A stretch of 64,000 nt of DNA. Source: a virus (taxonomy: Duplodnaviria; Caudoviricetes). The translations under genes were made by a program, and so were the position numbers. Every line of letters begins with the position of its first letter. Position 1 is the stretch's first letter. The notes beneath the pieces are model-generated. The model did not search any database. It was given only the letters and a program-made list of their open reading frames with translations, and had not been told where the DNA came from. The stretch spans positions 46,940 to 110,939 of IMG/VR virus record IMGVR_UViG_3300031998_000031; one strand, 5' to 3'. Positions 3,659 to 44,293 of the stretch are shown here, one piece after another.

Positions 3659-4915
3659 ATGCCTTTATATGTGGGGGTCGAAGGAAAGGCCAGAGAGATG
3701 GCCGCCTGTTTCGTAGGGGTCGAAGGAAAGGCCAGAGAAGTACAGGCGATTTTTGTGGGAGTCGAGGGTAAAGCTCGGTTAGTTTACTCCAGTAATATCG
3801 ACCATATCGAGTGCTACGTAAAAAAAATCGGCATAGGCCAAATGGATACAGCCGGTGTAATCACCAACATCGTTTACGATGATTATTCACAAGTGTTTGC
3901 TCACGGCGATTTACAGGTCAGCGGCAATAGCATATCCGCGCTTGGATATGCTGGATATGTAGTAGTTGCATTCATAGGGATGAATGCTGTCTATGCGAGC
4001 GGCTACAAGATGGACCTGTATAACGTTCTTGCTCAAGGTAAGACCGTAATTCTCGATGCTTCAGGCACGCTTGGTTCAGAGACCGCTCAGTATTCAGTCA
4101 GAAGCGGGATAGCCCTTGCGAACGAGACGTTATCCATTGATACGAGCGGCATGACTCCGGGAGTTGCGAGAAACACCGTCGCTCAGGTCCCACAGAACAT
4201 GTCTTCGACGTGGACGGACAGTGTCTGGAGCCAGACGTTTACCGGCATGAATGACCGCATCTATCAGGGCACCGTGCCGGGGAACGGGGCATTATCTCTT
4301 GCCCTGACTGTAAACAGGGTGAATATTGACGGAACGGATTATAACGTCGTATTTGAAGCTCTTCCGTATTGGCTGGGTAACTTGTCACACTTCTTGGTCG
4401 AATGGAATGGCGCAGCGACCTACGCGGGTTCTTCAGGCTCTTCAATCAACGATGTAACCATCGGCTCAGGGCGGAGCATCCTTCTGCAACACGGGGAATT
4501 ATCCATATCCGAATCATCCGTCTATATCAAGACGAACGAGATTACGCCGTACGTATACACCACGAATTATATTTATGGCAACATGTATGCTGTACTCAGA
4601 GATGGTTCGAGAATCGCAGTTGGTTCCCCGGCAGATATTGGTTCTTATTCGGTGGTGGCTAATCTAAACTATTCAAATTATTCCTATAATGCAGTTGCGC
4701 CCGTCCCTTATTGTTGGGGGCTTGGAGATACTTCAGCCACGAGTATTACCTCAGGAAACTTTACGCGAGTATATTCAAACGGCGGAAGTTTTGGCCTGCG
4801 GTGTATTTGTGGTATGTGGAATGGTGTAGGAACGCAGGCTTTCAACCTAAATGCAGTGAATGTTTCGTGCCATGGCAAGTCTTATCCTCTTAAGTTCTCG
4901 GACGCCGTGCAGTAG
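3659..4915 (+). CDS. Tail-associated protein
   Basis: Three N-terminal '(Y/F)VGVEGKAR' repeats; AGGAGG RBS; tail module context. Confidence 0.6.
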   Translation: MPLYVGVEGKAREMAACFVGVEGKAREVQAIFVGVEGKARLVYSSNIDHIECYVKKIGIGQMDTAGVITNIVYDDYSQVFAHGDLQVSGNSISALGYAGYVVVAFIGMNAVYASGYKMDLYNVLAQGKTVILDASGTLGSETAQYSVRSGIALANETLSIDTSGMTPGVARNTVAQVPQNMSSTWTDSVWSQTFTGMNDRIYQGTVPGNGALSLALTVNRVNIDGTDYNVVFEALPYWLGNLSHFLVEWNGAATYAGSSGSSINDVTIGSGRSILLQHGELSISESSVYIKTNEITPYVYTTNYIYGNMYAVLRDGSRIAVGSPADIGSYSVVANLNYSNYSYNAVAPVPYCWGLGDTSATSITSGNFTRVYSNGGSFGLRCICGMWNGVGTQAFNLNAVNVSCHGKSYPLKFSDAVQ

Positions 4916-5081: not shown

Positions 5082-7028
5082 ATGAGTTGGTATAGAGGCG
5101 GTACGCCTACACAGGTTTTCAAGTTTTATCTTAAAAAGGTAACGGGAGAATGCGAAGAGGCTGAGGTCCATGTAGCGCCGTTTGACATGTCTATATTCGA
5201 TGATTTTGTCATCACGTATAGTCAGAACGGCACGACTGTCATAGAAAAGCATAAGGCTGATTGTACGGTCGACCAGAACGAGGTATCGTTCAAGTTCACG
5301 CAGCAGGAGACGTTCCTCTTCGATGCTTCCGCGCCCGCAAAGATTCAGTTCCGGGGCGTTACCGGCAAAGGCGAAGTGGCCACTACTCAGGTCCAAAAGC
5401 GCAGTGTAAAGAACGTGCTGAATGAGCAAGTCATAGGTCACGACCTTCAGATAGATGCAGGGACCGGCTCTCCGTCGGCTTCGGATGTCGATTTCGTATT
5501 CGAGGAAAAAGAATATATCGAGATGGATTTGGAGGATATAAGCGTCCTCACAGAGACCGTCCATGACAAGCTGGGCAACAGGGATATACCCGACCAGCAC
5601 CCGATATCCGCTATCACCGACCTTACAGAATCCTTGGAGGCGAGGCCGCTTAAAGAGGATACGGTATCGTCTATCACTCTTGAGGATACGACCTTTACTG
5701 TCACGATGGCGAACGGGGATACTGAGACGTTCGACCAGAAGTGGCAACCTAACACCGCGTCTCAGGAAGGCTACGTTCCTTCAAGCGAGGGCGCGGCGAA
5801 CAAGGTCTGGAAGACCGATGAGTACGGTGACCCGTCGTGGCAGGATGCTGCTCCAGAGCTTTCGGCTCAGTCGCCGATAGCGATAGTAAACGGCGATATC
5901 GTTCACGAGGACAGCAACGTTACCGCCGGAACGTATGGAGACGCAAATGCTCAGACTCCGGGGTTCGGCGGTACGTTCAAGGTCACGCGACAGACGGTGG
6001 ACGCAAAAGGACACGTCACATCGCTGTCCGAGCATACGGTCACGATACCGAACGCTGTTGCGACTGACCAGAGCGATGGTCTGATGGGAGCGACAGAACA
6101 TGCGTTGCTTTCAAGCCACGACCAGCAGATTGCAGACATCGAAGGCGTCATCCCAGTTCAAGCGACTGCTCAGAATCAGCTTGCAGATAAAGAGTTCGTA
6201 AACGATAGCATAAATACGTCCCTTGCTCACTTCAGAGGCTCATTTGCGACCTACGCAGCCCTGATGGCTGTGCAGTGGCAGACATCTAATCCGTCTGGCG
6301 CAAATTACGTCTCCAATAATGACTACGCCGTAATCGAAGAGGATGAGACGCATGCCGGGGAGTCTTGGAGGTACGTCTATGTCTTAGAGCAGGGCGGACA
6401 GAATAATGGCTGGCAGCCGCAGTACAAGATAGGCGGCGGCACAGGGGACATGGAGTCCTCTGTATATGACCCGGAAGGGACCGTGGCAGAGTCCGGCGGC
6501 ATACCCGAATATGTGGCCGAGCACGCGCAGGCTGCACTGACGTTCGACGACAACCCGCAGCCCCAGAGCGATAATCCTGTAAAATCAAGCGGCATCTACG
6601 CATCCCTTTTGAATAGGCAGGCGTCTATCTGGTCCACGACCGTTACGCTCTCTACATCGTGGTCCGGTGACGACCCTTACTCTCAGGCTATATCCGTAAG
6701 CGGGACCACCGTGAACAGTATGGTGGACATCGTTTCCGATAACGCTCTCATCGACCAGATGATTGCCGACGGCACCATGGCTATGTGGATTGAGAACGAT
6801 AACGGGAGCCTTACAGTCAAAATCACCGGCGCAGAGCTTACAGCTGCCGTGACGCTCACACTTGTCATCATAGAGATAGGTAGCGTCGCCCCGTCTCAGT
6901 ACAACAGCAGCAACGAGGTCGTGTCGCATAAGGTGACCTCAATCACGAGTGCGTCCACAGACGTAGAGTATCCGTCTGCAAAGGCGGTATGGACGCTGTT
7001 CAATTCGATAACCAATGCAAATGAGTAG
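5082..7028 (+). CDS. Acidic tail fibre / appendage scaffold protein
   Basis: 648 aa; fibre motifs 'DQHPISAIT.L', 'VDAKGHVT', 'LTFDDNP...SDNPVKSSGIY', 'YPSAKAV'. Confidence 0.65.
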   Translation: MSWYRGGTPTQVFKFYLKKVTGECEEAEVHVAPFDMSIFDDFVITYSQNGTTVIEKHKADCTVDQNEVSFKFTQQETFLFDASAPAKIQFRGVTGKGEVATTQVQKRSVKNVLNEQVIGHDLQIDAGTGSPSASDVDFVFEEKEYIEMDLEDISVLTETVHDKLGNRDIPDQHPISAITDLTESLEARPLKEDTVSSITLEDTTFTVTMANGDTETFDQKWQPNTASQEGYVPSSEGAANKVWKTDEYGDPSWQDAAPELSAQSPIAIVNGDIVHEDSNVTAGTYGDANAQTPGFGGTFKVTRQTVDAKGHVTSLSEHTVTIPNAVATDQSDGLMGATEHALLSSHDQQIADIEGVIPVQATAQNQLADKEFVNDSINTSLAHFRGSFATYAALMAVQWQTSNPSGANYVSNNDYAVIEEDETHAGESWRYVYVLEQGGQNNGWQPQYKIGGGTGDMESSVYDPEGTVAESGGIPEYVAEHAQAALTFDDNPQPQSDNPVKSSGIYASLLNRQASIWSTTVTLSTSWSGDDPYSQAISVSGTTVNSMVDIVSDNALIDQMIADGTMAMWIENDNGSLTVKITGAELTAAVTLTLVIIEIGSVAPSQYNSSNEVVSHKVTSITSASTDVEYPSAKAVWTLFNSITNANE

Positions 7029-7223: not shown

Positions 7224-9989
7224 ATGGGTACATCAGATGTAGTAAGGGTCACATATGGCGGCTCTCTGATATACGTGGCGGGCGCAGATACGCAGTTCAA
7301 ACTGGATACTGCCAATAAGCGCTTGACTGAAGATGTCATCGTTAACGTCGGATATGCCGAAGATACGCATGACGCGACCATGGACGATGCCGCGCAGCTG
7401 CTATCTGGCATTACTGCTTACGCTGGCGGCTCCAAGTATACAGGTACACTTCAGGACTATACCGGCTCGATAAACGGTGGAGAAGGCTACATCCCGTACT
7501 ACAGCGGTGCGTACTATATCGAGCCTACGAGCGAGATTCAGTCGATTTCCACGTCCGGCATGTTTATGTCCAGTGACATGACCATCGGACGCGGTGCGCA
7601 GCCGTCCGGGACGCTTTCAATCCGCGCAAACGGCACGTACGATGTTACGGACTACGCGAGCGCAGCGGTCTTGGTGTCTGGCTCAGAGTATTCCTTCGGG
7701 ACCATCCCGGCTTTATCTTCCACGCCGTCTTCGCTTGTAGATTCAGGCGTAAATATCGGATATAATGCCGCCGATAGTGATTATTATTTAGCGGTCTCCT
7801 CATTGAATCTGGCAGGAAAATCAGCCTATGGATTCTATTACAAGGCGGTAGGCAGTACGTATTATACTTTTTGCGTAGTATCAGACGAGAATCCTTCACC
7901 TGTTTATTACCAAGAAGTTATCGGTGGCACCGCAAGGGGCGTTGGTGCCAAGCAATGTAGTTATGATTCGCAGAACTATCTGTTCTACGCTTCGGGGATT
8001 GGACAGATACGCGATGAATACGTCAATTCGGCATTCCCGGTCTTTGTTGCCCAAACGCAAGAGGAGGCATTAGCGTCGGGGTTCGCGGCTTACCGCGAAT
8101 TCATGAATAACACCGCAGAGAGATATTTTGAGGTGTTGATGGGCAACAAGTCCGGCAGTGTCGTATTTTCCGGGAGCGCGATACGGACGTATGCGGCATA
8201 CTATGACGCTAACATAACTGCTATTGACGCAAGCTATGCTAAGACTGTAGGGACCGCCGCGTTTTCAAACTGTTATAGCCTATGTGAAGCTAATATCCCA
8301 GTTTGCAGCCAGATTGCCGCGTATGCGTTTTATGGCTGTAGAGAGCTTTCAAGTTTAAATTGCCCAGCCGTTCAAGAGATTGGCGATTTTGCGTTTTGCG
8401 CATGTTACGCATTGAGTGCCATAAGTCTTCCAAGCTGCACAGCTATTGGAAAAGCGGCATTTGCATCCTGCACCAGCCTTGCGGATATATATATGCCCAT
8501 GGTTTCCAGTATAGCGAACGCTAATCAATCGACCAGCGGTGCTTTTTACAGTGTGGCACTTACAAGTGTTGACCTTCCCGCATGTTCGTATATAGGAAAC
8601 TATGCTTTTTGCAAGGGTCGTTCTCTTGTGAGCGTACGCGCTTCAGCATGTTCTGTGATTGGAAACTGCGCATTTCAAAGCTGTTCACTTTTAACTGATG
8701 TATATATGCCCAGTTGTGTGTCTGTGGGGATTTTTGCATTCGCGTATTGCTCTTCACTCCAGAGCATCGATTTACCTGTGTGTGCATCGGTGGCAGCGGG
8801 GGCGTTTTCGGTTTGCTCAAGGCTTGTAAGCGTAAGTATCCCGCAGTGTTCTTACGTGGGCGATAATGCGTTCGCCAATTGTTCCGCGCTCCAATCCATA
8901 GAGCTTTCCCTTTGTTCAAGACTCCTTGCTGGGGCCTTCTATAATTGTCGCTCGCTTCAGGATGTATCCATACCTTTAGTGAGGTCGATTGGACAAAGCG
9001 CATTCTGGAGCGACGCAGCCTTGTCTCGCATCGAGGCTCCTCTTTGCAATACGCTTGATTTTTTTGCATTCACGTATTGCTCAATGCTTGAATATGTAAG
9101 CATGCCTGAGCTTCTGGCTACATCCAGCGGGACTAATTGGAGTACTGGCGCGTTCGCATCGACCGGCATATCGAGCGTTGAATTTCCTGCTTTGATGAAA
9201 GTAAATGCCTACACATTTGCTTCATGCAAGAGTTTGCAGCAGATATCTTTGCAGTGCTGTGACGCTATTATGGGAAGTTGTGCATTTCAGTCCTGTACAT
9301 CACTTGAGAGCGTGTATCTATTTGGAAATAGCGTGGCTTCGCTGTCAGCAGTGAACGCGTTTGCCAGTACGCCGATGTCTCTGAGTTCTTATCTCGGCCA
9401 CTTTGGCTCGATATTCGTTCCGTCAGATGTATATGCCTCCTATTTGACTGCTCAATACTGGTCGACATATTCATCGCGGCTGGTATCGTGCCCGGTAACT
9501 TACGGGAGCAACATAAGCCCGTTCGACGGGGAGGTCACCTTAGAGAATCCTCGCAACGTCACGCTTGTGTCGGCATCTTCTACGGATAATGTCTGGAATA
9601 TATCGCTCTCGGTCGTTACACAGAGCAGTGAGCATGAGGGCGTCAGCATTCCCTTGACCAATAACAGAGAGTCTGGCAAGTGGTATCGTCTGGACTTTGA
9701 CGTATTGATACCATCGGGGACGTCGATAAATGCAAATGCGAACAGACCAATCTTGGCCATCATTGCCCATAGTATTACCACCCAAGGTAATACCGCTTAT
9801 TATCAAAGCCCTGTTTATGCGACAGATACCTTTACGGCAGGGACGCCGAAGCACTATAGTCTTACCGTAAGCGGTGACGCGGATAAGAGCCTGATTCTTT
9901 ATCTTGCCGGTATAGCAGATGGTCAGACCAAGACCATCGAGATTACCAACATAACCATGTACGAGAAGACGGTAACATTACCGTCGTAA
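7224..9989 (+). CDS. BspA/TpLRR leucine-rich-repeat protein 1 with fibre-type N-terminal modules and an extra C-terminal domain
   Basis: 921 aa; many ~22-aa 'L..I.LP.C..IG..AF..C' repeats; cap 'GSIFVPS....Y.TA.YW'. Confidence 0.85.
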   Translation: MGTSDVVRVTYGGSLIYVAGADTQFKLDTANKRLTEDVIVNVGYAEDTHDATMDDAAQLLSGITAYAGGSKYTGTLQDYTGSINGGEGYIPYYSGAYYIEPTSEIQSISTSGMFMSSDMTIGRGAQPSGTLSIRANGTYDVTDYASAAVLVSGSEYSFGTIPALSSTPSSLVDSGVNIGYNAADSDYYLAVSSLNLAGKSAYGFYYKAVGSTYYTFCVVSDENPSPVYYQEVIGGTARGVGAKQCSYDSQNYLFYASGIGQIRDEYVNSAFPVFVAQTQEEALASGFAAYREFMNNTAERYFEVLMGNKSGSVVFSGSAIRTYAAYYDANITAIDASYAKTVGTAAFSNCYSLCEANIPVCSQIAAYAFYGCRELSSLNCPAVQEIGDFAFCACYALSAISLPSCTAIGKAAFASCTSLADIYMPMVSSIANANQSTSGAFYSVALTSVDLPACSYIGNYAFCKGRSLVSVRASACSVIGNCAFQSCSLLTDVYMPSCVSVGIFAFAYCSSLQSIDLPVCASVAAGAFSVCSRLVSVSIPQCSYVGDNAFANCSALQSIELSLCSRLLAGAFYNCRSLQDVSIPLVRSIGQSAFWSDAALSRIEAPLCNTLDFFAFTYCSMLEYVSMPELLATSSGTNWSTGAFASTGISSVEFPALMKVNAYTFASCKSLQQISLQCCDAIMGSCAFQSCTSLESVYLFGNSVASLSAVNAFASTPMSLSSYLGHFGSIFVPSDVYASYLTAQYWSTYSSRLVSCPVTYGSNISPFDGEVTLENPRNVTLVSASSTDNVWNISLSVVTQSSEHEGVSIPLTNNRESGKWYRLDFDVLIPSGTSINANANRPILAIIAHSITTQGNTAYYQSPVYATDTFTAGTPKHYSLTVSGDADKSLILYLAGIADGQTKTIEITNITMYEKTVTLPS

Positions 9990-41291: not shown

Positions 41292-41366
41292 AGCGGTTTA
41301 GCCAAGCGGCAAGGCAACCGGCTTTGGTCCGGTCATTCGTTGGTTCGAATCCAACAACCGCCGCCA
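41292..41366 (+). tRNA. tRNA-Gln(UUG)
   Basis: ACCGG-CTTTGGT-CCGGT anticodon arm, GTTGG-TTCGAAT-CCAAC T arm, unpaired 1:72, encoded CCA. Confidence 0.9.
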
Positions 41367-41504
41367 CGTCGCATTATCGACGATAGACATATTGTTGTCA
41401 GGTAGACGGCTCTACCTTCTTGCCGTAAAGCCTTTGAAAATAAGGCTGCGAAAGGGTTCAACTCCCAATCGTGTTATGGACGGAAACGGCAGTCCTTTCT
41501 GAAG

Positions 41505-42749
41505 ATGAAGGAAGATTTGAAAATGAGTGAGATGATAATTGAGGGAAGATTTAATACAGCTAAAGTCTTTACGGACGTGATAGACGACGAAAGCATCCGG
41601 CAGATTAAGGAGCTTTTGAATCAGGAATTCTTTTCTGACTCAAAGATAAGGCTGATGCCGGACGTTCACGCCGGTGCAGGGTGTACGATAGGGACCACTA
41701 TGACCATAAAGGATAAGATAGTGGCTAACTTGGTGGGTGTGGACATATCGTGCGGAATGCGAGTAGCGAAGCTGAAAGAGACACATTTAGAGCTTCAGCA
41801 GCTCGATAAGGTCATCCATGAGAATGTCCCGTCGGGATTCTGCAAAAGGGGCAGCGTCCATCGGTTTGCAGATATGGTCGACCTATCAAAGCTCCGCTGC
41901 GCTGATAAGGTCAACATAGATAATGCTCGTGTCAGCCTTGGTACCCTTGGCGGAGGGAATCACTTCATTGAGGCGAATAGGGCTGATGATGGGAGTCTAT
42001 ACATCGTTATACATTCAGGAAGCAGGCACCTTGGTCTTGAGGTCGCGAACTGGTATCAGGAAGAAGCATTTAGACAGCTAAGCGGGGGCGAAAAACGCAA
42101 TCTTAAAGAGATGCGAGATGAGGTCATTGCAAAGCTGAGGGCTGAGGGCCGCGAGAAGGAAATCGGAGCAGCTCTCAAAGCTCTGCCCGCGAGCGGCAAA
42201 TCTGATATTCCTAAGGACTTGGCCTATTGCAGCGGCAATCTGTTTGATGACTACATCCACGACATGATAATCATTCAGCAGTTTGCGGACTTGAATCGCA
42301 GGGCCATGATGGATGAGATAGTAAGGGGCATGCACCTGCACGTAGAGGACGAGTTCACGACCGTCCATAACTACATCGACACTGATGCGATGATACTGAG
42401 AAAAGGCGCAGTCTCTGCAAAGGATGGGGAAGTGTTGATAATCCCGATAAATATGAGGGACGGAAGCCTCATCTGCTGTGGCAAGGGTAATCCTGACTGG
42501 AATTATTCAGCGCCTCATGGTGCCGGGAGACTTATGAGCCGCAAAAAGGCGAAGGAGTCTTTGACTGTTTCGCAGTTTAAAAAGGAGATGGAGGGTATAT
42601 ACAGTACATCTATCAATCATAGTACGTTAGACGAAGCTCCGATGGCATATAAATCAATTGATGACATCGTGAGTAACATTGGAGACACGGTAGACGTCCT
42701 TGGAGTAATTAAGCCGATATATAATTTCAAGGCCGGTGAAGATTACTAA
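41505..42749 (+). CDS. rtcB: RtcB RNA 3'-phosphate/5'-OH ligase
   Basis: 'MPDVHAG', 'VGVDISCG', 'GTLGGGNHFIE', 'IHSGSR', 'HNY', 'RKGA', 'PHGAGR', 'DEAPMAYK'. Confidence 0.95.
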   Translation: MKEDLKMSEMIIEGRFNTAKVFTDVIDDESIRQIKELLNQEFFSDSKIRLMPDVHAGAGCTIGTTMTIKDKIVANLVGVDISCGMRVAKLKETHLELQQLDKVIHENVPSGFCKRGSVHRFADMVDLSKLRCADKVNIDNARVSLGTLGGGNHFIEANRADDGSLYIVIHSGSRHLGLEVANWYQEEAFRQLSGGEKRNLKEMRDEVIAKLRAEGREKEIGAALKALPASGKSDIPKDLAYCSGNLFDDYIHDMIIIQQFADLNRRAMMDEIVRGMHLHVEDEFTTVHNYIDTDAMILRKGAVSAKDGEVLIIPINMRDGSLICCGKGNPDWNYSAPHGAGRLMSRKKAKESLTVSQFKKEMEGIYSTSINHSTLDEAPMAYKSIDDIVSNIGDTVDVLGVIKPIYNFKAGEDY

Positions 42750-42763
42750 GGTGGCTATACTGT

Positions 42764-42838
42764 GGGCGTGTAGCTCAGCGGTAGAGCACCCGGCTCATAA
42801 CCGGTTGGTCGCGGGTTCGAATCCCGAAGCGCCCACCA
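42764..42838 (+). tRNA. tRNA with CAU anticodon (Ile2-like or Met)
   Basis: CCGG-CTCATAA-CCGG arm, T loop TTCGAAT, ACCA end; mismatches at the acceptor/T-stem junction. Confidence 0.8.
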
Positions 42839-42937
42839 AGTAAGTGAGACTTAAATGCTGTAAATGATGATGCGGGGCGTCCGCGCCAGCCGCGTCTATG
42901 GGTGACGATGCTAACCGGAAGTACAGCAGCCCAGAAT

Positions 42938-43038
42938 ACTGCGGTGGCGGAATAGGTAGACGAAGGTAAGATGGTCGCTCCATCGCTGGGCGCATATTCC
43001 TGTATGCGCCATGTGAGGTGCAAATCCTCACCCGCAGT
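42938..43038 (+). ncRNA. tRNA-like scaffold RNA E1
   Basis: ACTGCGG/CCGCAGT helix, GCGGAATAGGTAGACG D arm, GTGAGG-TGCAAAT-CCTCAC T arm, two-hairpin insert, no CCA. Confidence 0.75.
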
Positions 43039-43042
43039 TTAT

Positions 43043-43119
43043 GCTTCGGTAGCGCAACAGGCAGAGGCAACCGCCTCAAAAGCGGAAGAGTGCTGGTTCA
43101 AGTCCAGCACCCTGCGCCA
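43043..43119 (+). pseudogene. Chimeric tRNA-Leu(CAA) with unpaired acceptor stem
   Basis: 5' part identical to 43334 copy; 3' strand ACCCTGC-GCCA mostly fails to pair with GCTTCGG. Confidence 0.7.
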
Positions 43120-43123
43120 ACAT

Positions 43124-43206
43124 GGGAGAGTGCGCTTAATTGGTGATAGCAGCGGGCTGTAAACCCGTGACGTAGAAACGCTGGAGGTTCGAGTCCTGCT
43201 TGCATT
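43124..43206 (+). pseudogene. tRNA-Tyr(GUA)-like copy 1 lacking acceptor 3' strand and CCA
   Basis: GCGGG-CTGTAAA-CCCGT arm, variable arm, T loop TTCGAGT, then TTGCATT not complementary to GGGAGAG. Confidence 0.7.
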
Positions 43207-43217
43207 ACTTAGTAAAT

Positions 43218-43330
43218 AACTGCGGTGACGGAATAGGTAGACGTAGGAGTAAGGGTAACCGAGGGATGATAAAACCCTGTATACACAAACGATAGACCCT
43301 CATACAAGGTGCAAATCCTTGTCCGCAGTT
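43218..43330 (+). ncRNA. tRNA-like scaffold RNA E2
   Basis: AACTGCGG/CCGCAGTT, D stem ACG/CGT (covaried), ACAAGG-TGCAAAT-CCTTGT. Confidence 0.75.
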
Positions 43331-43333
43331 CAT

Positions 43334-43410
43334 GCTTCGGTAGCGCAACAGGCAGAGGCAACCGCCTCAAAAGCGGAAGAGTGTGGGTTCGAATCCCACC
43401 CGAAGCACCA
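43334..43410 (+). tRNA. tRNA-Leu(CAA) with short variable loop
   Basis: GCTTCGG/CCGAAGC, CCGC-CTCAAAA-GCGG, GTGGG-TTCGAAT-CCCAC, A73-CCA. Confidence 0.8.
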
Positions 43411-43523
43411 ACGGGGTTGCAGAGCAAATGTACGTCCGACCCAGTGCGCCCAGCTTGTTAAGCTGGATACGCAGGCCAATAGGATGTGATGTGTGGTTAG
43501 CGGTGAATCCTTAAACCGCCCGT

Positions 43524-43599
43524 GCTGGGATAGCTCAGTCGGCAGAGCATCTGCCTCGTAAGCAGGAGGTCAAGGGTTCAAACCCCTTTCCCAGCTCCA
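43524..43599 (+). tRNA. tRNA-Thr(CGU)
   Basis: GCTGGGA/TCCCAGC, CTGC-CTCGTAA-GCAG, TCCA end. Confidence 0.9.
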
Positions 43600-43601
43600 T
43601 A

Positions 43602-43740
43602 TGATACCGTGGCGGAATATGTAGACGCATTCACGAGGCGACGTAAGACGGTAAGAGGTGCTGCCCTACCTATGGACGCATAGGTCGTGTCAACCGATGA
43701 GTAGCTGAGCTATGCAGGGTGAAAATCCCTGCCGGTATCA
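43602..43740 (+). ncRNA. tRNA-like scaffold RNA E3
   Basis: TGATACCG/CGGTATCA, GCGGAATATGTAGACGC, GCAGGG-TGAAAAT-CCCTGC. Confidence 0.75.
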
Positions 43741-43746
43741 AGATTT

Positions 43747-43837
43747 GCGGAATTAAGCCTAACTGGTAAGGCAGCGGTTTGCTAAACCGTGAGTAGGGTG
43801 AAAGCCCGTGCAGGTTCAAGTCCTGCATTCCGCGCCA
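43747..43837 (+). tRNA. tRNA-Ser(GCU)
   Basis: GCGGAAT/ATTCCGC, GCGGT-TTGCTAA-ACCGT, long variable arm, GCCA end. Confidence 0.9.
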
Positions 43838-43841
43838 ACAT

Positions 43842-43924
43842 GGGAGAGTGCGCTTAATTGGTGATAGCAGCGGACTGTAAATCCGTGACATTGAAACGTT
43901 GGTGGTTCGAGTCCTGCTTGCATT
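43842..43924 (+). pseudogene. tRNA-Tyr(GUA)-like copy 2 lacking acceptor 3' strand and CCA
   Basis: GCGGA-CTGTAAA-TCCGT arm; same non-pairing 3' tail as copy 1. Confidence 0.7.
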
Positions 43925-43933
43925 ACTTAGTAA

Positions 43934-44118
43934 ATAACTGCGGTGGCGGAATAGGTAGACGCTATGAAGAATACAGGTAGACAGGTCCTTCGGTTCGAAT
44001 CCGGCGCGGTGCTTGCGAAGTGGCTAATCGCATAGAGGGCGAAGTAGCCCATAGCGCAGTGGTTTTATGTCAGGGAATAGGCTTGTTATGCGTGGTGCAA
44101 ATCCACGTCCGCAGTTAT
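43934..44118 (+). ncRNA. tRNA-like scaffold RNA E4 (longest insert)
   Basis: ATAACTGCGG/CCGCAGTTAT, GCGGAATAGGTAGACGC, GCGTGG-TGCAAAT-CCACGT. Confidence 0.75.
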
Positions 44119-44123
44119 GAAAT

Positions 44124-44213
44124 GCAGAAGTGACCCGAACGGTAAGGGGCCCGTCTCGAAAACGGAGTGTAAGGTGAAAGCCTGTGGGGGTTCGATTCCC
44201 TCCTTCTGCGCCA
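44124..44213 (+). tRNA. tRNA-Ser(CGA)
   Basis: GCAGAAG/CTTCTGC, CCGT-CTCGAAA-ACGG, long variable arm, GCCA end. Confidence 0.9.
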
Positions 44214-44217
44214 ATAT

Positions 44218-44293
44218 GGGACATTAGCTCAGTTGGCAGAGCAATCGGCTGTTAACCGATGGGTCGTAGGTTCGAGTCCTACATGTCCCGCCA
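44218..44293 (+). tRNA. tRNA-Asn(GUU)
   Basis: GGGACAT/ATGTCCC, ATCGG-CTGTTAA-CCGAT, GCCA end. Confidence 0.92.

Follow-up and report, generated by a model that had tools for sequence, protein, structure and literature searches.

A complete phage genome of 110.9 kb, bounded by direct terminal repeats (IMG/VR record IMGVR_UViG_3300031998_000031), was analysed over its right-hand 64 kb, and this whole stretch of 64,000 nucleotides (nt) is referred to as the window. It contains a transfer RNA (tRNA) array at 41292-44293, in which all genes lie on the + strand and among which four RNA elements, designated E1 to E4, share a tRNA-like frame around middle segments of different sequence. The order of the array is Gln, the gene for the RNA ligase RtcB, Met, E1, a chimeric Leu-like copy, a Tyr-like element, E2, Leu(CAA), Thr, E3, Ser(GCU), a second Tyr-like element, E4, Ser(CGA) and Asn. 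Seven of these were called as tRNAs by ARAGORN (Gln, Met, Leu(CAA), Thr, Ser(GCU), Ser(CGA) and Asn), to which Rfam added two weak Tyr-like matches and the chimeric Leu-like copy, just below threshold. The RtcB gene occupies 41505-42749 on the + strand inside the array (PF01139, E 9e-62), and E1 starts about 190 nt downstream of it. No promoter or terminator signal between the array genes rose above chance.

An initial annotation, made from the sequence of the window, had described four elements with a shared frame, and all four were found where it had placed them. The frame consists of a 7-base-pair (bp) terminal or acceptor helix, TG, a 3-bp D stem with the loop GAATA(G/T)GTAGA, the middle, the dinucleotide AT and a 6-bp T stem. 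The T loop is TGCAAAT in E1, E2 and E4 and TGAAAAT in E3. The full frame that defines the wider family (7-bp acceptor, UG, D arm GCGGAAUAGGUAGACGC, N-U48, 6-bp T stem and UGMAAAU loop) was present in each of the four. The acceptor reads ACTGCGG/CCGCAGT in E1, E2 and E4 and GATACCG/CGGTATC in E3, and the four T-stem sequences are all different and all paired. The D stems had been given as GCG/CGC versus ACG/CGT. This holds for E2 (ACG/CGT, compensated) and for E3 and E4 (GCG/CGC), and fails for E1, where the stem is GCG/CGA with a G10.A25 mismatch. The 18-nt D-arm motif TGRCGGAATAKGTAGACG occurs four times in the window against 0.12 expected, with no further copy in the 110.9-kb genome.

E1 (42938-43038, + strand, 101 nt) comprises the 5' acceptor strand at 42938-42944, U8-G9 at 42945-42946, the D arm at 42947-42963, the middle at 42964-43010, A47-U48 at 43011-43012, the T arm at 43013-43031 (GTGAGG TGCAAAT CCTCAC) and the 3' acceptor strand at 43032-43038. 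Its middle forms two hairpins, GATGG-TCGCT-CCATC and then an 8-bp hairpin abutting U48, arranged as in a class II tRNA with the anticodon loop replaced by a 5-nt loop. E2 (43219-43329, + strand, 111 nt; 113 nt span of an 8-bp helix at 43218-43330) has its D arm at 43228-43244, middle at 43245-43301, AT at 43302-43303, T arm at 43304-43322 (ACAAGG TGCAAAT CCTTGT) and 3' acceptor strand at 43323-43329. E3 (43603-43739, + strand, 137 nt; 8-bp helix at 43602-43740) has the D loop GAATATGTAGA, with U18, a middle at 43629-43711, AT at 43712-43713 and the T arm at 43714-43732 (GCAGGG TGAAAAT CCCTGC). A tertiary covariation of U18 with A56 in E3 was considered and is unsupported, as U18 occurs together with C56 in other members. 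E4 (43937-44115, + strand, 179 nt; 10-bp helix at 43934-44118) has its D arm at 43946-43962, middle at 43963-44087, AT at 44088-44089 and T arm at 44090-44108 (GCGTGG TGCAAAT CCACGT), the stem of which includes one G.U pair and is compatible with the + strand only. The middles of E1 to E4 thus measure 47, 57, 83 and 125 nt. Under the covariance model R1 described below, in whose seed all four are included, E1 to E4 scored 77.3, 84.5, 67.2 and 68.4 bits.

The initial annotation had further stated that the four elements lack an encoded CCA and that every true tRNA of the array has one. CCA is indeed absent from E1-E4 and ends all seven tRNAs called by ARAGORN; the generalization does not extend to the two Tyr-like elements of the array. 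Its description of the inserts as mutually unrelated and hairpin-rich was borne out in part. The four middles are unrelated to each other, but that of E4 belongs to a recurrent insert class and is not a one-off. Statistically, only E1 is hairpin-rich (insert-only folding z-score of -4.6), with values of +0.2 to +0.7 for E2-E4.

Two segmental repeats cross the array, with junctions that fall inside the frames of the E elements. Repeat D1 (43090-43243, + strand, 154 nt) is 92% identical to 43808-43961 and runs from a tRNA T arm through a Tyr-like element to the exact end of the D arm of E2 or E4. Repeat D4 (43016-43121, + strand, 106 nt) is 86% identical to 43307-43412; it begins within the T arm of E1 or E2 and continues through a Leu(CAA)-like gene. 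Since the flanks are shared by segmental duplication, the middles are the sole unique parts. For the same reason, the flanks of E1, E2 and E4 make the four copies by themselves weak evidence for the covariation that had been claimed from them, and the strong evidence came from an alignment of the wider family.

To retrieve the family, IMG/VR was scanned with the pattern GGTGCAAATCCNNNNCCGC, which has 15 fixed bases and covers the T arm and acceptor only. At least 120 unique sites were found. Among the matches listed, all four T-stem pairs left free by the pattern were formed at 102 of 120 sites, and a Leu-type D-arm motif, which is absent from the search pattern, was present within 420 nt upstream at 102 of 120. 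Six or seven of the seven acceptor pairs were formed in 98 of the 102 listed sites bearing the D arm. A second T-arm pattern was run on one genome per prokaryote species. It added 71 full frames, almost exclusively from Bacillota (Lachnospiraceae, Oscillospiraceae, Clostridia, Bacillus, Paenibacillus and Ruminococcus). Matches of this pattern without the frame, in Streptomyces, Brucella and archaea, were about as many as chance predicts. In total, at least 181 distinct elements were collected, with lengths from 85 to 334 nt.

Sixty-six members were aligned (alignment A3). Because the search pattern itself fixed two T-stem and four acceptor pairs, these are uninformative, and the covariation signal comes from the pairs that the pattern left free. 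Pairing was found in 97.6% of cells, compared to 82.2% in shuffles and 34-51% in slid controls. Thirteen of the 16 pairs had changed on both sides, and the covariation score of 0.470, against 0.157, was attained by none of 500 shuffles. Compensatory changes were present in all three helices of the family. A covariance model, R1, was built from A3, and it matched independent sequences in the phages SPP1 (81.6 bits), Listeria phage LP-LmcIH1-8 (64 bits) and deep-sea phage D6E (55.7 bits). Two elements adjoining RtcB in the locus L082 scored 47 and 33.6 bits, while the best real tRNA-Leu genes scored 16-20 bits.

The invariant columns of A3 correspond to positions of the tRNA tertiary core: U8, G9, A14, A15, G19, U48 and the T loop. 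The family keeps the 7-bp acceptor, U8, A14 and the A15-U48 pair. Its D stem of 3 bp closes an 11-nt loop in which G18-G19 are retained, and U54, C56 and A58 are retained in the T arm. Apart from the T arm, these are also the features in which the E elements resemble class II tRNA-Leu (RF00005), the exceptions being U18 in E3 and the mismatch in the D stem of E1. The features diagnostic of the family are the 6-bp T stem and G55 (loop UGCAAAU). The stack of acceptor and T stem has 13 bp instead of the 12 of tRNA, and with G at position 55 the universal pseudouridine cannot form.

Between the D arm and the T arm, the middles of the family measure about 30-280 nt. In 85 of 175 members, 60% or more of the middle is enclosed by a helix of at least 5 bp that ends next to the dinucleotide preceding the T stem; in 19 members, E1 included, this closing helix is a local hairpin. 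Its 5' strand starts about 10-17 nt after the D arm, most often 10-14 nt. A helix separated from the T stem by 2 nt (A47-U48), and from the D arm by a long linker, has the geometry of a class II variable arm and not that of an anticodon stem, and it occupies the site of the long variable arm of tRNA-Leu. Based on this geometry, we read the family as a class II tRNA with an expanded variable-arm position, the anticodon arm being reduced to a linker or, in E1, to a hairpin whose loop has 5 nt.

A canonical anticodon arm (5-bp stem, 7-nt loop, U33 and R37) was found in six of 181 middles compared to 5.5 in shuffles, and none can be drawn in E1-E4, in agreement with the initial observation that their inserts lack a canonical anticodon loop. 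The E-type RNAs cannot read codons. They also differ from class II tRNA-Leu, and from canonical tRNA in general, in a T stem of 6 bp rather than 5 and in a T loop of UGCAAAU or UGAAAAU rather than UUCRANY, with G55 in place of U55. The discriminator base of E1-E4 is T, T, A and T; across the family it is A in 41%, T in 34%, C in 15% and G in 9%, which equals the composition of the flanks, and no CCA follows. Leucylation was considered and is unsupported, there being neither a conserved A73 discriminator nor an encoded CCA. ARAGORN made no call on E1-E4, and a search with 4227 Rfam models, including that for tRNA (RF00005), gave no match to them even at E<=10. The initial annotation had been unable to assign them to a known family. 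No Rfam family was found, so this stands as far as Rfam goes, but the kind of RNA has a precedent in RNA1 of phage T5.

Other known classes were tried and rejected. Transfer-messenger RNA (tmRNA) gained no call from ARAGORN or Rfam; pair 3-70 is U-A or A-U and not G3.U70, and CCA is lacking. The models for YrlA and Y RNA (RF02553 and RF01053) gave weak matches (E 1.9 and 6.8) on real tRNAs at 44160-44242 and not on E1-E4, and a search of the phage genome for a TROVE/Rsr gene (PF05731) gave no match. YrlA belongs to the rsr-yrlA-rtcBA operon and has a permuted topology, with its free ends at the Ro-binding stem and the acceptor capped. This permutation, and a phage genome without a TROVE/Rsr gene, separate YrlA from the E elements. 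One report (PMC4201824) describes YrlA as a mimic of tRNA that does not decode, has D and T arms and, in some bacteria, is genetically linked to RtcB.

The closest resemblance was to T5 RNA1 (NC_005859, misc_RNA T5s03), annotated as a 'tRNA-like stable RNA with unknown functions' within a phage tRNA cluster. In this RNA the 7-bp acceptor is followed by UG and a Leu-type D arm, CCGGAAUUGGUAGACGG, and a large middle without an anticodon separates these from the T arm. R1 aligned it end to end at 24.8 bits, only slightly more than the 20.3 bits of the real tRNA-Leu of T5. It differs in its canonical UUCAACU T loop, in a shorter, gapped T stem in the R1 alignment and in its Gram-negative host. T5 RNA1 is treated here as a distant relative or a parallel invention outside the UGCAAAU type. 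The T4 species 1 and 2 RNAs (rnaC and rnaD) are likewise small stable RNAs of unknown function at the end of a phage tRNA cluster. A canonical T arm is present in rnaC (CCGGG UUCGAAU CCCGG), and in its minimum free energy fold bases near both ends are paired. The T4 RNAs lack the Leu-type D arm and are analogous in setting only, and R1 did not match either as a member.

Among cultured phages, the SPP1 member lies at about 6647-6755 of NC_004166.2, between genes 9 and 11 and just upstream of scaffold gene 11. Further members or fragments were found by blastn in phi3T and in Enterococcus, Lactobacillus, Brochothrix and other Listeria phages, and the annotation under all members matched in this way was either none or 'hypothetical protein'. 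In the Enterococcus phage phiFL2A (locus L207, 2479-2529), the frame occurs without any middle as a 51-nt form, GTCACTG TG GTGGAATATAGACC AT GCAAGG TGCAAAT CCTTGC CAGTGAC, which about ten E. faecalis phage records share at 94-100% identity. A real tRNA follows this form after about 120 nt. No description of the family was found in the literature. The 2018 re-annotation of SPP1 mentions no tRNA-like gene (PMC6316719), and a catalogue of 10,006 candidate viral RNAs, in which parts of the family may be listed, refers to 'tRNA-like structures' in general terms only (PMC10690425).

E1-E4 are best read as four paralogues that belong to a widespread RNA family carried by phages and derived from class II tRNA-Leu. 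What has been selected is a non-decoding tRNA top half with an exchangeable middle. The overall explanation that we favour, tentatively, is a non-decoding tRNA mimic derived from tRNA-Leu, which is matured like a tRNA and acts in trans. Going by the known requirements of tRNA enzymes, the elements would be co-transcribed with the neighbouring tRNAs, excised by enzymes of the RNase P and RNase Z type, which need the top half only, and would persist as stable small RNAs; T5 RNA1, with the same layout, is recorded as a stable RNA. As to function, we would venture with less assurance that, as mimics acting in trans, they may tie up or draw away a host factor that recognizes the tRNA body. The likeliest target would be a tRNA-directed defence nuclease or modifier, with the near-invariant frame as the recognized part and the variable middle tuning or protecting it. 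That the D and T loops hardly vary, and that a form without a middle exists, speaks for the frame in this role. Septu and retron-Eco7 cleave class II tRNA-Tyr in its variable loop, a defence that is countered by phage tRNAs (PMC13096335). With defences that cut class II tRNA and counter-tRNAs of phages both documented, a decoy role is plausible rather than demonstrated.

Several points weigh against this explanation. Clustering of 1094 neighbouring open reading frames (ORFs) by blastp gave no constant protein neighbour, the largest cluster being present at 10 of 115 sites. The position in a late-operon leader, seen in temperate phages, would also suit a role in cis. Activity of the frame alone is hard to square with several copies per genome that bear unrelated middles, and the 13-bp acceptor/T stack and G55 might hinder recognition by tRNA enzymes. 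The R1 scores of E1-E4 (67-85 bits) are circular because all four were in the seed.

A less probable alternative is that the frame is a display scaffold, which provides processing and stability only, and that each exchangeable middle is a different working RNA, for instance a decoy for an RNA-guided or RNA-antitoxin defence, a protein sponge or a guide. The same frame is present in several copies per genome with unrelated middles, and in the family as a whole 181 middles formed 117 similarity clusters, of which 95 were singletons. Middles are exchanged like cassettes between otherwise identical frames. In the near-identical phages of loci L007, L020 and L018, identity covers the 120 nt preceding the element as well as its acceptor and D arm; the middle of L018 is then unrelated to and shorter than that of L007 and L020, and identity resumes at the T arm. 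Some middles recur as classes with conserved blocks and covarying stems of their own. The insert class of E4 is common to the loci L195, L275, L218 and L295, two of which are Ruminococcus and Oscillospiraceae genomes, and in it the block GGYGAARTAGCC is conserved and an internal stem covaries. The E4 middle also includes a canonical T-arm-like hairpin at 43990-44004 on the + strand (TCGG-TTCGAAT-CCGG). Such a canonical T-arm hairpin was present inside 12 of 181 middles against 0.5 expected, and in 10 of the 12 it lies 21-32 nt into the middle. A second site of expansion, of 38-130 nt, falls exactly between G18 and G19 of the D loop in 24 of 114 IMG/VR members; about half of these expansions carry the motif GGTAAA(G/A), and several also a T-arm-like hairpin. 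Engineered tRNA scaffolds, described by Ponchon and Dardel, reportedly carry foreign RNA in the place of the anticodon arm, are processed by tRNA enzymes and are stable, stabilizing the RNAs inserted in them. Those scaffolds are man-made, whereas in the natural family processing by tRNA enzymes and a role for the middle are both putative.

The content of the middles argues against a display scaffold. Compared to dinucleotide shuffles, they are barely more stable (mean folding z-score of -0.49, with values above 0 in 34%), and no Rfam module was found in 21 members with long inserts at E<=0.05. Guides against the phage's own genome were rejected, as the best matches of the four middles were 11-13 nt at E>=0.16, with no significant match or complement; the sole recurring match was that of the internal T-arm motif of E4 to real tRNAs. 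An origin of the middles in known phage DNA was also rejected, since those of E3 and E4 match nothing in GenBank phages. The payload role that the initial annotation suggested for the middles (decoys, guides or antitoxins) is conjectural. The persistence of the form without a middle, and a conservation of D and T loop sequences that far exceeds the needs of a processing handle, likewise count against the scaffold. A copy of a T-stem strand in the linker, considered as a possible switch, was not systematic when judged by eye. A broader form of the idea, to which we give slightly less weight again, is a phage tRNA chassis, in which one constant frame handled by tRNA enzymes would serve to make and stabilize a large pool of different RNA modules directed against host immunity, and to exchange them by recombination. 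The modules would be, for example, decoys for RNA-guided, RNA-antitoxin or tRNA-cutting defences.

The surroundings of the members bear on a third explanation, that the elements act in cis as RNase P/RNase Z entry sites or as 5' or 3' stabilizers of polycistronic transcripts, with the excised RNA as a by-product. In the annotated temperate phages phiFL2A, LP-LmcIH1-8, PSA and D6E, a long gap separates a late activator gene (annotated as ArpU, LmaC, RinA or 'putative transcriptional activator') from the packaging genes downstream, and the element lies in this gap. The commonest neighbour clusters include four of terminase large subunits and one of a portal protein, and the SPP1 member directly precedes a scaffold gene. 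In LP-LmcIH1-8 (locus L206), a match to rliG (RF02415, 160 bits) at 2338-2536, covering the first ~160 model positions only, runs directly into the element. These positions would suit punctuation of a transcript. In the large lytic phages (the window phage, L082 and a Schiekvirus), however, the element lies within tRNA arrays, and the four copies in the window stand among seven real tRNAs that already offer such sites. Processing requires the shape and not near-invariant D and T loop sequences, and the long, diverse middles are left unexplained. We consider a purely cis-acting role improbable and retain the trans-acting tRNA mimic as the preferred explanation. The leader of LP-LmcIH1-8 between late activator and packaging genes is densely filled with RNA elements; an mcrA RNA motif (RF03010) was also matched at 2775-2824, about 130 nt downstream of the element.

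The RtcB gene about 190 nt upstream of E1, the Leu-type frame and the presence of elements at some RtcB-linked loci elsewhere could suggest an interrupted tRNA-Leu, whose middle is an intron and whose halves are joined, for example by the neighbouring RtcB, into a working tRNA. This is very improbable. Anticodon arms are no commoner in the middles than chance predicts, an intron plus an anticodon arm would not fit into the shortest members (85-101 nt), and neither A73 nor CCA is conserved. A tRNA-Leu bearing a group I intron was rejected in particular, there being no intron or other Rfam match and no anticodon loop to interrupt. RtcB lies near elements in the window phage and in several loci retrieved with RtcB as bait, but no annotated RtcB was found in the regions fetched around the SPP1, Listeria and Enterococcus members. 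We read the link to RtcB as shared residence in tRNA neighbourhoods, a matter of context and not of an obligate partner. Decay of tRNA-Leu pseudogenes, or debris of a shuffling array, is as improbable: the array does hold debris, namely the chimeric Leu/Ser copy at 43043-43116 and the two weak Tyr-like copies, but the 6-bp T stem, G55 and the missing anticodon arm recur with compensatory changes in more than 170 independent elements from hosts that range from Bacillus to Clostridia, and the covariation in A3 refutes decay, as the initial annotation had argued.

For about fifty years, 'extra' stable RNAs without a known function have been recognized in phage tRNA clusters, T4 species 1 and 2 and T5 RNA1 and RNA2 among them. 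The present family shows that such RNAs form a large, strongly selected class and are not oddities of two coliphages. That a constant tRNA top half is combined with middles that can be swapped suggests that the tRNA shape is put to use beyond decoding. The family is spread through phages and prophages of Bacillota that include the tractable SPP1, phi3T, Listeria PSA and Enterococcus phiFL, and as SPP1 carries one copy, the role of such RNAs is directly testable. For annotation, these are genes missed by tRNA finders and Rfam; no member is annotated as such, and some lie under 'hypothetical protein' calls.

Minor observations were made at several loci. In SPP1 (locus L205), a 55-codon ORF on the coding strand at 2430-2597 overlaps the member, and the annotated 'gene 10' may really be an RNA gene. 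Just downstream, a second, miniature tRNA-like hairpin at 2619-2670 (ACGGAC...CGGG-TTCAATT-CCCG...GTCCGT) is followed by a T run and gave a weak match to a tmRNA model (E 0.05). In the loci L022-L025, a weaker relative (26-28 bits) was located at about 4474-4594, upstream of RtcB. Its T loop is the canonical TTCAAAT on a 6-bp stem, its D arm is degenerate and ACCA is encoded at its end.

In the window, the tRNA-Leu(CAA) at 43334-43410 has a class I shape without a long variable arm, which is unusual for Leu. The 5' three-quarters of the chimeric copy match this Leu(CAA), and its T arm, 3' end and the following CCAACATGGGAGAG match the end of tRNA-Ser(GCU); its acceptor stem is mismatched and its score of 28.5 bits is slightly below the Rfam cut-off. 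The two Tyr(GUA)-like class II elements (43129-43207 and 43847-43925) are 92% identical to each other and scored 32.9 and 29.1 bits, at the Rfam threshold. Both have mismatched T stems and a weak acceptor, lack CCA and were not called by ARAGORN, and each lies directly 5' of an E element (E2 and E4) within the 154-nt repeat. Two array spacers of ~100 nt each (42839-42937 and 43411-43523) are without a tRNA, E element or Rfam match. A search for close relatives of the phage by means of a neighbouring protein found none.

Unusual genes were also seen in the arrays of other phages. Directly after the family member of L020, a tRNA-Trp(CCA)-like gene at 9751-9823 has an intact acceptor, anticodon arm and CCA end together with a non-canonical T loop, AACAGAG, and received no ARAGORN call. 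In the tRNA array of Enterococcus phage vB_Edu_21C1 (L304), an annotated 348-nt 'tmRNA SsrA' at 1145-1492 lies immediately upstream of the member at 1501-1617. In the tRNA array of L082, an RtcB-carrying phage, ARAGORN called a tRNA with a 4-base anticodon (agaa) at 3825-3913.

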